From a virus (taxonomy: Monodnaviria > Loebvirae > Hofneiviricota > Faserviricetes > Tubulavirales > Inoviridae): 9,032 nucleotides of DNA. The notes below the pieces were generated by a model that did not search any database, was not told the origin of the DNA, and worked only from the letters and a program-made list of their open reading frames with translations. Of this stretch, positions 2,630 to 4,234 are shown one piece after another. The translations under genes were made by a program, and so were the position numbers. Location: IMG/VR virus record IMGVR_UViG_2529293040_000001; one strand, 5' to 3'. The first letter of the stretch is position 1, and every line of letters starts with the position of its first letter.

Positions 2630-4234
2630 TCAAGACCGAAGAACAATAAAGAATGAAAGCATGGAGCCAATCAGCGTCATAATCACCCTGAAAGTGGCCC
2701 TGACTTCATCGGTATCAAGCAGCACACAAAAAGTATCCAGTTGATAATCTTTATTCCAGATATTGAATGTAAAGACAGGACACTGCCCCCGTGGAATTGT
2801 CAGTGAAAAATCACGCGCAGAAGGCCACATATTCCACAATGGAGAAATGAATGATGAAGGCTCAGGAGATGAAATATCAGGCGTATCCACTGAAGGTGCA
2901 GTGCCAAAGTCATTTGACACAGTCACGTTAACATTTACCGTAGCATTACCTGTTACAGTGGTACTGCCAGAACCTGTTCCGACTCCAGCTCCTGTACCGC
3001 TACCCGTTCCAGTGCCTGTACCCGTTCCAGTGCCTGTACCCGTTCCAGTGCCTGTACCCGTTCCAGTGCCTGTACCCGTTCCAGTGCCTGTACCCGTACC
3101 GCTGCCTGTACCCGTACCGCTGCCTGTACCCGTACCGCTGCCTGTACCCGTACCGCTGCCTGTACCCGTACCACTGCCTGTACCCGTACCGCTGCCCGTA
3201 CCTCCAACGGGCTTAAAACCGGGGTCAATAACAGGAGGGGTATATTTACCTCCAGAATTGCTGGTATCACCACCTGGTGTCGGAGGAATAGCAATAACAC
3301 CAGATTCTGTAAAACTTGCAGAATCACCGATGCGGAGGTCTACCGTAGAACGATAATTGTCTACGTCAGCAGAGGAATATTTCAATAAAAACGAAGATAT
3401 CCCGCGATATTCAGAGAGGCCATCTAATTGTTCAGTCAGCCCGTTAAGAATATCTGCAATATCCTGAGATGCCAGATTATTTCCAGAGAAAGATGGCACG
3501 TGGAGAGACGATGAGAATGGATTTTCAGTGGTTGCTGCCTCGCAAGTAGAATTACCATCAGAATAAAACAGAACCTGACCGTTATCACAAAAAACAGAAT
3601 CCTCACTTAACGTTACTGACCAGAATACAAACGAACTCTGGGACCAGGAACCTCGAAAATAATAAGCGTAGTAGAATCTGTACCACTCATTATCAACGAT
3701 ACTCTTCGGAGGAGTATAATAAGACGACTGAAGCGAGGCTTTATCTTCAGGAGGTAAGCACTGAATAACCCGCGCAGCAGCAGAAAACGGCGAAGTACTG
3801 GTAACGTAGCAATTATCAAACCCGCCATGCCAGGCCTTGACACCCGCACTCATGGCTGGAGTGTAATAAAACGCGTTATAGCCATTTTTATCTAAAACCA
3901 ATTTTGCCACCTCCTCAGCAAAAGGTTTTCCTGCGGCATAAATTCCAAGACTGACTGTAGTTACACCAAGACCGTAAGCCAGAGTACTCCACGACATTGC
4001 TGAAGCAGAAATCCCGGCAGATGCAGCATAATTTGATGCAAAAGACGCTGCCGCACGTGAATATCCTGATAACGTTGCCGAAATAGATGAGGCGCTGGCC
4101 CCCATTGCAGATAATTTGCGATTAATAATACCGGACAATTCAGAAGAAAATGTTGTGGTAGTCAGTGTCGCTGTTTCAGCACAGGCGTGATTTGTTAACA
4201 AAACGTACAATAGCGACACAGAAATATTTTTCAA
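2630..4234 (-). CDS. pIII-like adsorption (receptor-binding) minor coat protein
   Basis: 534-aa ORF with an N-terminal signal peptide ([19 protein letters not shown]), a long (GTGSGT)n glycine-rich linker and a C-terminal hydrophobic anchor ([18 protein letters not shown]). It sits downstream of the major coat gene. The first in-frame start is TTG at 4234, directly after in-frame stop codons, so the exact start is uncertain. Confidence 0.75.
3003..3200. repeat. Tandem array of 11 x 18-bp repeats, two subtypes, inside the pIII linker
   Basis: CCCGTTCCAGTGCCTGTA occurs 5 times (3003-3092) and CCCGTACCGCTGCCTGTA about 6 times (3093-3200), read directly from the plus strand. On the minus strand these encode the Gly-Thr/Gly-Ser linker. 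Degenerate copies extend to roughly 2970 and 3206. Confidence 0.9.

Follow-up and report, generated by a model that had tools for sequence, protein, structure and literature searches.

A length-variable in-frame coding repeat in the pIII-position gene of a CTXphi-like, dif-integrated Escherichia coli prophage

In the UPphi group of dif-integrated enterobacterial inoviruses, gene III is the most variable gene, with 95 variants in 229 genomes that differ mostly in how many glycine-rich repeats they have (PMC7307601), and the linker of phage IKe, as cited in the same paper, diversified within a few laboratory generations with no effect on fitness. Variation in linker length is thus already published for other filamentous phages. 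Here we describe an array of 18-bp tandem repeats in the IMG/VR virus record IMGVR_UViG_2529293040_000001, a DNA stretch of 9,032 nucleotides (hereafter the window) which, judged by its gene content and junctions, is a CTXphi-like filamentous prophage of Escherichia coli integrated by XerCD at dif beside hipA. What is new is this undescribed CTXphi-like lineage and its different repeat unit. We consider the array likely to be a hypervariable coding minisatellite that stays in frame and specifies a length-tolerant Gly-Thr/Ser linker of an adsorption-type protein, encoded at the pIII position of the prophage.

Similar to UPphi and IKe, the repeat lies in frame in the attachment-protein gene, within the linker that joins its N-terminal part to its C-terminal part, and repeat number is the main variation among near-identical prophages that stand in tandem at dif. 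The prophage in the window belongs, however, to another lineage, with an RstR/Rep_trans module like that of CTXphi. Its 18-bp unit encodes a Gly-Thr/Ser peptide, whereas the units of UPphi and IKe encode GGGES, and its N-terminal domain belongs to a very small separate family, represented by three 90%-identity clusters among 5.8 billion proteins. An independent, second inovirus lineage with different unit chemistry is thereby added to those in which the gene III linker is the most variable part of dif-integrated enterobacterial inoviruses, and the case for linker-length variation as a general property of these proteins becomes stronger.

Tandem Repeats Finder detected a single array in the window (3001-3202; period 18, 11.2 copies, 96% matches, score 292), and the degenerate pattern CCCGTWCCRSTGCCTGTA, allowing at most one mismatch, gave exactly 11 head-to-tail matches at 3003-3200. 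The same pattern had no match in dinucleotide-preserving shuffles (n = 200), so that eleven in-register units are observed against none expected by chance. On the plus strand, five identical CCCGTTCCAGTGCCTGTA units (3003-3092) are followed by six units of the CCCGTACCGCTGCCTGTA type (3093-3200), two of which carry one single-nucleotide polymorphism (SNP) each. The position, the 18-bp unit length, the eleven copies and the two subtypes reported in an initial annotation of the window, made from its letters, were therefore all reproduced by Tandem Repeats Finder, the pattern scan and the listing of units. The coding strand of the array is the minus strand, where the sole long open reading frame (ORF) spanning it is 2630-4234 as listed. 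The unit length is a multiple of 3 bp and the 11 copies are in frame with this minus-strand ORF, which makes the array a coding variable-number tandem repeat; it also has a sub-period of 6 bp that corresponds to a Gly-Thr or Gly-Ser codon pair. The Gly-rich linker proposed in the initial annotation is indeed encoded, but not as a uniform (GTGSGT)n: in the sense of the gene, on the minus strand, six SGTGTG units are followed by five TGTGTG units within an 80-aa Gly-X tract, the end of which consists of the degenerate units TGTGSG, TGAGVG and TGSGST.

Two other frames are open across the array, one of 197 aa on the plus strand (2763-3356), which encodes a Pro-Val repeat (PVPVPV), and one of 124 aa on the minus strand (2953-3327); both are by-products of a stop-free repeat and not genes. 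We attach next to no credence to the view that the functional product of the region is this antisense Pro-Val ORF, which the repeat does keep open, or a DNA structure that serves, e.g., as a packaging signal. No family was matched by the antisense ORF, every relative has the minus-strand ORF conserved, annotated and intact, the array folded as single-stranded DNA scores no better than its shuffles (z = -0.83), and the free variation of its length argues against a defined DNA structure.

Copy number was compared across 45 copies of the gene from 34 sources, comprising the window, 27 of 5,426 complete E. coli genomes and six IMG/VR contigs. Loci were taken from all 27 carrier genomes, and 14 IMG/VR contigs were added to the examination; in every copy, the array segment was the sequence between two fixed anchors (window positions 2901-2950 and 3216-3265). 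Among the complete genomes, the match to the 1605-bp query spans 1551-1677 bp. The expectation that related prophages would differ in array length was borne out: far from being uniform, the 45 copies contain 28 distinct array sequences (25 among the 39 copies that preceded the addition of the IMG/VR contigs), with array segments of 211-355 bp and Gly-X tracts of 62-110 aa. The reading frame is kept in all 43 full-length copies outside the window, each with an intact ORF of 519-567 aa. In 31 of the 35 source-length combinations the lengths differ by a multiple of 18 bp, and in the others by a multiple of 6 bp. The alleles are composed of four main unit types (S1, S2, T1 and T2) in ordered blocks, where interior homogeneous runs vary in length. 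The first and last units are alike in most alleles, and the terminal units x1-x4 are common to 33 of 39 copies, the six copies that lack them being parsed in a shifted register.

It is very improbable that these differences between strains are artefacts, whether of sequencing or of assembly, in a repeat that assemblers resolve with difficulty. Such an origin would agree with six 1-bp deletions that distinguish the window from its closest relatives, all of them in A/T homopolymer runs (1555, 2002, 4232, 4850, 6803 and 7049) and typical of long-read consensus errors, and with the behaviour of short-read assemblies, which break at the array. The length differences, however, are exact multiples of 6 or 18 bp and leave every ORF intact, and the alleles are made from the four unit types in ordered blocks. 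In addition, exactly the same alleles recur in independent near-clonal genomes (five pairs) and in both tandem copies of nine genomes, which argues against an assembly artefact. In the database, most members of protein clusters P0001 and P0002 are partial sequences of ~350 aa that end where the linker starts; draft genomes systematically contain a truncated gene, since short-read assemblies stop at the array, and the gene is usually annotated as partial or hypothetical. Copy number can be read from long-read data only. A recombination junction at the repeat, prompted by matches covering 77% of the query, was also considered and rejected: the coverage is reduced because longer arrays, e.g., those in coding sequences (CDSs) of 1704 bp, split the BLAST alignment.

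The carriers are mostly human isolates from many countries, including O166:H15 and "AST" strains collected in Japan, stool isolates of African and South Asian origin, and Dutch isolates of RIVM. Several genomes from RIVM, the UK, Hungary and Malawi have flanking proteins with common accessions, yet their arrays range from 211 to 355 bp.

Alleles on identical or near-identical backgrounds are separated by steps of one or two units, in both the S and the T blocks. For example, locus L003 differs from L023/24 by one T1 unit and from L021/22 by one S1 unit, L006 differs from L013 by one S2 unit, and the window differs from L012 by two T2 units. Other alleles contain interleaved blocks such as S..T2 S..T2 T1, which look like out-of-register duplications. 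The stepwise duplication suggested earlier by the arrangement of five units of one subtype and six of the other is in line with these steps, which fit stepwise duplication and loss of units.

The tempo of this change can be gauged from pairs of genomes. All four between-genome pairs with no SNP in the 4.7-kb structural module have the same array, whereas the array is the same in none of the five pairs with 1-2 SNPs in 4.7 kb, nor in any of the more diverged pairs. One haplotype of the gene (0 SNPs in 1349 nt outside the array) is found with arrays of 211, 325 and 355 bp, and L008 and L017 differ by two SNPs in 6.3 kb and by 114 bp in their arrays. Since arrays are shared at 0 SNPs and never at 1-2 SNPs, the turnover of the array is at least as fast as that of all point substitutions in ~5 kb combined. 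The array is a fast-evolving marker that could discriminate near-identical copies of this little-studied E. coli filamentous prophage. On the other hand, tandem copies within a chromosome have identical arrays in 9 of 11 genomes and near-clonal isolates have common alleles (L002/L009, L008/L025, L019/L027, L021/L022 and L023/L024), so that the rate of array change is not extreme.

The gene that contains the array occupies the position of pIII. It stands between genes for a pVIII-like protein and small coat proteins on one side and pVI-like, Zot and pIV genes on the other, in the same order in the RefSeq relatives, where it is annotated as an intact CDS of 1560-1704 bp for a hypothetical protein. 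Its translation has a pIII-type layout, with a signal-peptide-like N-terminus, a Gly-rich tract, and a C-terminal domain that has a terminal hydrophobic helix and, ahead of the helix, two invariant Cys 18 residues apart. The same succession of signal peptide, N-terminal part, Gly-rich linker and C-terminal domain with a membrane helix is found in pIII of the Ff phages (f1/M13/fd), whose gene likewise lies upstream of pVI, pI and pIV. A low-confidence model of the C-terminal domain consists of a beta-hairpin and a terminal helix, and its Cys-flanked hairpin ahead of the terminal helix resembles the C domain of f1 pIII (PMC10175506). In contrast to the protein in the window, which has one Gly-Thr/Ser linker, pIII of the Ff phages has two linkers of the Gly-Gly-Gly-Ser/Glu type, and no sequence homology between the two proteins is detectable. 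We thus regard the gene as a plausible pIII-like minor coat gene by synteny and architecture, with homology to pIII of Ff not demonstrable. The description of the repeat as a linker between two domains of the adsorption protein holds insofar as a Gly-rich tract joins an N-terminal region to a C-terminal anchor in a pIII-position gene; it goes beyond the evidence where it calls the first domain receptor-binding. The Gly-X tract presumably serves as a linker or tether, and the position of the gene suggests that the N-terminal part may bind a receptor. The N-terminal domain (3266-4243) has a SNP density of ~30 segregating sites/kb over 17 haplotypes, against ~10/kb in pVI, and its pN/pS ratio of ~0.33 gives no overall signal of diversifying selection. 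This comparison covers the N-terminal domain and pVI; values for the C-terminal domain, read in a wrong frame, and for Zot and pIV, where indels displace the coordinates, were discarded.

A simple mechanism would account for the variation. The units are nearly identical, 18 bp long (six codons) and have a 6-bp sub-period; their misalignment would add or remove whole units and would therefore keep the frame. Misalignment could occur by replication slippage on rolling-circle or chromosomal forks, or by unequal, RecA-dependent recombination, the partners being sister, tandem-prophage or replicative-form copies; both routes would fit the alleles, and sequence alone does not separate them. A linker that need only be long and flexible would tolerate a roughly two-fold range of lengths (62-110 aa), so that its alleles could outpace point substitutions.

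The best measured analogue of such a process is tolA of E. coli, a gene with 15/18-bp in-frame repeats, 8-16 natural copies and a contraction rate of ~7e-5 (PMC3477136). Contraction in tolA depends on RecA and rises when uvrD is mutated, and mutS has no effect on it (PMC3477136). Similar to the array in the window, tolA has in-frame units of 15/18 bp in a spacer-like segment, in the same host species, and its 8-16 copies compare with 8-16 units here, counting the degenerate terminal unit. It may thus serve as a good mechanistic model. The differences are that tolA is a host gene whose repeats encode a Lys/Ala-rich alpha-helix, whereas the tract described here would be a Gly-rich flexible coil, and that phenotypic effects of copy number have been demonstrated for tolA.

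In the genome that carries locus L004 (NZ_CP086625.1), two tandem copies of the prophage (20272 and 27985) have arrays of 265 and 319 bp. They are identical over 2.95 kb on one side and their differences are confined to the linker gene, where eight SNPs lie in the N-terminal domain, 480-800 nt from the array. Other strains have these SNPs in mosaic combinations, so that exchange between phage variants by recombination has a part in the diversity. These unequal copies were considered as proof of slippage in situ and rejected as such, given that the eight mosaic SNPs also separate them. It is possible, although on balance rather unlikely, that the diversity stems mainly from homologous recombination between co-resident or superinfecting variants, either by allele shuffling or by unequal crossing-over in tandem or replicative-form copies. 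Besides L004, this explanation can draw on the high frequency of tandem prophages, the resemblance of the interleaved S..T2 S..T2 T1 patterns to out-of-register block duplications, the association of one structural module with three replication/integration modules, and the RecA dependence of tolA contraction (PMC3477136). Several pairs of alleles on the same background, however, differ by exactly one unit inside a homogeneous run, which slippage explains equally well, and the two processes are not mutually exclusive.

A number of points weigh against the view of the array as a hypervariable minisatellite in a length-tolerant pIII-type linker. The tandem copies within one chromosome are mostly identical, as described above. 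Recombination between phage variants may have brought in some of the allele differences, which would then not have been made in place. The folding of the array as single-stranded DNA, no better than that of shuffles, provides no special slippage-prone hairpin. Slippage or recombination is the presumed mechanism, and the near-neutrality of length is assumed from the IKe precedent. As to the protein, comparison with Pfam and NCBIfam yielded no family, and comparison with PHROGs yielded families of unknown function only. Sequence and profile searches of PDB returned low-complexity or chance matches, and hhalign against the C-terminus of f1 G3P (residues 343-406) gave a probability of 0.8%. AlphaFold2 models of the N- and C-terminal domains, based on alignments of 3-4 sequences, had pLDDT values of 42.7 and 49.3, too low for a fold search.

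The initial annotation had further proposed that the array is a likely contingency locus, a label that, as worded, is not supported. Classical contingency loci, such as those of Campylobacter, Haemophilus and Neisseria, are described as having 1-9-bp units that shift the frame or the spacing of a promoter, and as giving reversible expression, ON/OFF or graded, with high frequency in clones (PMC6321876, PMC6625227). The array in the window resembles them as a repeat-driven, locally hypermutable tract with an outward-facing product, and its location in the pIII-position gene, the interaction role of which is suggested by synteny, places it in a gene for a surface or interaction molecule. It differs in that no change leaves the frame and copies within clones are mostly the same. 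For the array to be a true contingency locus, it would have to mutate at high frequency in clonal populations, and its length would have to alter adsorption or host range and be selected as hosts change, e.g., in their envelope or TolA geometry. We judge this improbable. Several facts do point in this direction: the linker gene is, by position, at the phage-host interface, allele turnover exceeds the accumulation of SNPs, and the tracts seen all stay between 62 and 110 aa, which implies that some constraint exists. The UPphi authors also raised possible host-range effects of g3p variants (PMC7307601), and the tolA repeat (8-16 copies) belongs to the co-receptor of Ff, with a copy number that alters infection by fd (PMC3477136). 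Opposed to these are the identical arrays in 9 of 11 within-genome tandem pairs and in all near-clonal genome pairs, in-frame unit changes that exclude ON/OFF switching, the pN/pS ratio of the N-terminal domain, and a longer linker of IKe that brought no selective advantage, in the secondary account given by PMC7307601.

A related and still more doubtful notion is that linker length is an adaptively tuned "reach", with the tract acting as a tether that would span a host-specific distance from the primary surface receptor to a periplasmic co-receptor such as TolA, the spacer repeat of which has a similar range of 8-16 copies in E. coli and influences infection by filamentous phages. If this notion is true, the array would be a genuine viral contingency locus that tracks the geometry of the host envelope, and its significance would grow should linker length prove to tune host range or infectivity. 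We continue to favour a minisatellite in a length-tolerant linker.

The evolution of the tract can be followed further in diverged relatives. A search of the 5.8-billion-protein database with the whole protein returned four true relatives amid low-complexity Gly-Thr matches. A search of the protein database with the C-terminal domain returned nothing, possibly owing to the stop codon in the query, and a scan of species-representative genomes with C-domain patterns found none. In the diverged relatives, a Gly-Thr/Ser tract is kept at the same position, with different DNA units. An E. coli sister lineage of the P0002 type (L036-L038, from IMG/VR), whose N-terminal domain is 64% identical, has a (GT)n linker with a 12-bp period, based on GGAACA GGCACC / GGAACA GGTACC repeats, and tracts of 54, 60 and 88 aa. 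This lineage is known from three IMG/VR contigs and is absent from the 5,426 complete genomes. At locus L039 the tract is pure (GT)37, its period is 18 bp and its codons differ; units of the TSTGEG type are found in P0003, and the Salmonella protein P0004 combines an unrelated N-terminal domain with a GS/GT/GD tract. In these sequences, composition and approximate length are conserved while the repeats turn over, and the 12-bp and 18-bp GT repeats are independent repeat systems that give the same peptide composition. The period gene of Drosophila has a coding minisatellite of Thr-Gly dipeptides, the length of which varies naturally in frame. As it is a eukaryotic clock gene with an unrelated protein, it offers an analogy only for the evolution of Gly-Thr coding repeats.

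The features of the window are collected in Table 1. The assignment to CTXphi-like dif prophages is supported by the Rep_trans gene, the divergent RstR-like ORF, the dif-derived junctions and tandem integration; an intact dif core lies ~290 bp past the end of pIV in 12 relatives, and many relatives have two or more tandem prophage copies beside hipBA. Similar to CTXphi, the prophage has the order rstR-like gene, Rep gene, small genes, major coat gene, linker gene, Ace-like pVI gene and Zot gene, with tandem integration of the XerCD-dif type. In contrast to CTXphi, it also carries its own pIV secretin. OrfU is the pIII-equivalent of CTXphi. The linker protein in the window has no detectable similarity to any phage record by tblastn. 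Among deposited phage genomes, megablast found no match to the prophage, and distant blastn yielded fragments at the level of rstR, Rep and zot only.

Table 1. Features of the 9,032-nt window, with the evidence for each
Feature	Position	Strand	Basis or remark
pIV-type secretin gene	1..1260	-	Pfam Secretin 1.9e-25; phrog_1012 "protein IV of M13" 1.8e-116
Zot/pI assembly ATPase gene	1257..2313	-	Family matches; single 1050-1059-bp CDS in relatives
pVI/Ace-like minor coat gene (DUF2523), directly downstream of linker gene	2325..2612	-	Pfam PF10734 2.9e-9; phrog_974, phrog_306 "Ace-like"
pIII/OrfU-position minor coat gene (linker gene)	2630..4243	-	Start ATG 4243 in relatives (MSFLKNISV...); listed ORF start TTG 4234
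C-terminal hydrophobic anchor (18 residues), then RS-stop; preceded by two invariant Cys	2639..2692	-	Translation, alignment with P0003 and P0004
Entire Gly-X linker tract with its degenerate terminal units (80 aa; residues 345-424 in the listed ORF)	2963..3202	-	Codon read-out
Tandem array, eleven 18-bp units	3003..3200	-	Tandem Repeats Finder, pattern scan, unit listing
Five identical T-type units (gene-sense ACTGGAACGGGTACAGGC register), each TGTGTG	3003..3092	-	Unit listing, pattern scan
Six S-type units (AGCGGTACGGGTACAGGC or AGTGGT...), each SGTGTG; N-terminus-proximal half of array	3093..3200	-	Codon read-out, S1/S2 unit typing
Signal-peptide-like N-terminus (19 residues / ETAT)	4178..4234	-	Read from translation
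Conserved 56-aa ORF, between linker gene and major-coat-like gene	4247-4417	-	ORF list, relatives
Major-coat-like gene (pVIII/Cep position), upstream of linker gene	4552..4827	-	phrog_2186 "virion structural protein" 4.3e-14; weak Pfam Phage_Coat_B
111-aa gene of unknown function	between major-coat-like gene and Rep_trans gene in listed order		
Rolling-circle replication initiator (Rep_trans, RstA-like)	5325..6551	-	Pfam PF02486 1.9e-21; phrog_453 4.4e-107
RstR-like repressor ORF, divergent from phage operon	6852..7136	+	phrog_2503 5.4e-27; ~70% identical in DNA to the rstR genes of CTXphi and of Vibrio phage VAI1/2
dif-derived half-site (reverse complement GGTGCGCATAATGT), prophage/hipA junction	7638..7651	-	Sequence read
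HipA gene	7731-9032		Beyond prophage

Two of the six homopolymer deletions in the window, at 1555 and 2002, split Zot into separate ORFs. A third, near 4232, shortens T6 to T5 (ATGAGTTTTTTG to ATGAGTTTTTG) at the start of the linker gene, with loss of the in-frame ATG; the listed ORF starts at TTG 4234 because this deletion breaks the frame from ATG 4243. The six deletions are probably long-read consensus errors, although they could also be real inactivation in a decaying prophage.

Two minor matches were noted outside the compared loci. A tailed-phage contig, Caudovirales sp. ct2KA10 (OX376640.1, 15839-16021), is 76% identical to the array over 183 bp and presumably contains an unrelated Gly-Thr coding repeat. 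Strains AF34 and AF60 have a second locus away from dif (NZ_OZ547096.1, 1145538-1146165, and NZ_OZ547048.1, 643556-644183) with 84% identity to the C-terminal third of the sister-lineage gene, which may be another filamentous prophage with a related C-domain of the tip protein.

Finally, three different replication/integration modules accompany the same structural module (pIV-Zot-pVI-linker gene), a case of modular mosaicism. The first type consists of Rep_trans and the RstR-like gene and is located at dif. The second has a "replication endonuclease" and an IS110-family transposase and occupies two other chromosomal sites with an adjoining gene of the phospholipase D family, namely ybiB-hcxB (L001, L003, L005, L010 and L014) and ilvI-leuO (L018). 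The third, with a "phage/plasmid replication domain" protein and an HTH protein, was found at dif in S21EC (L016).

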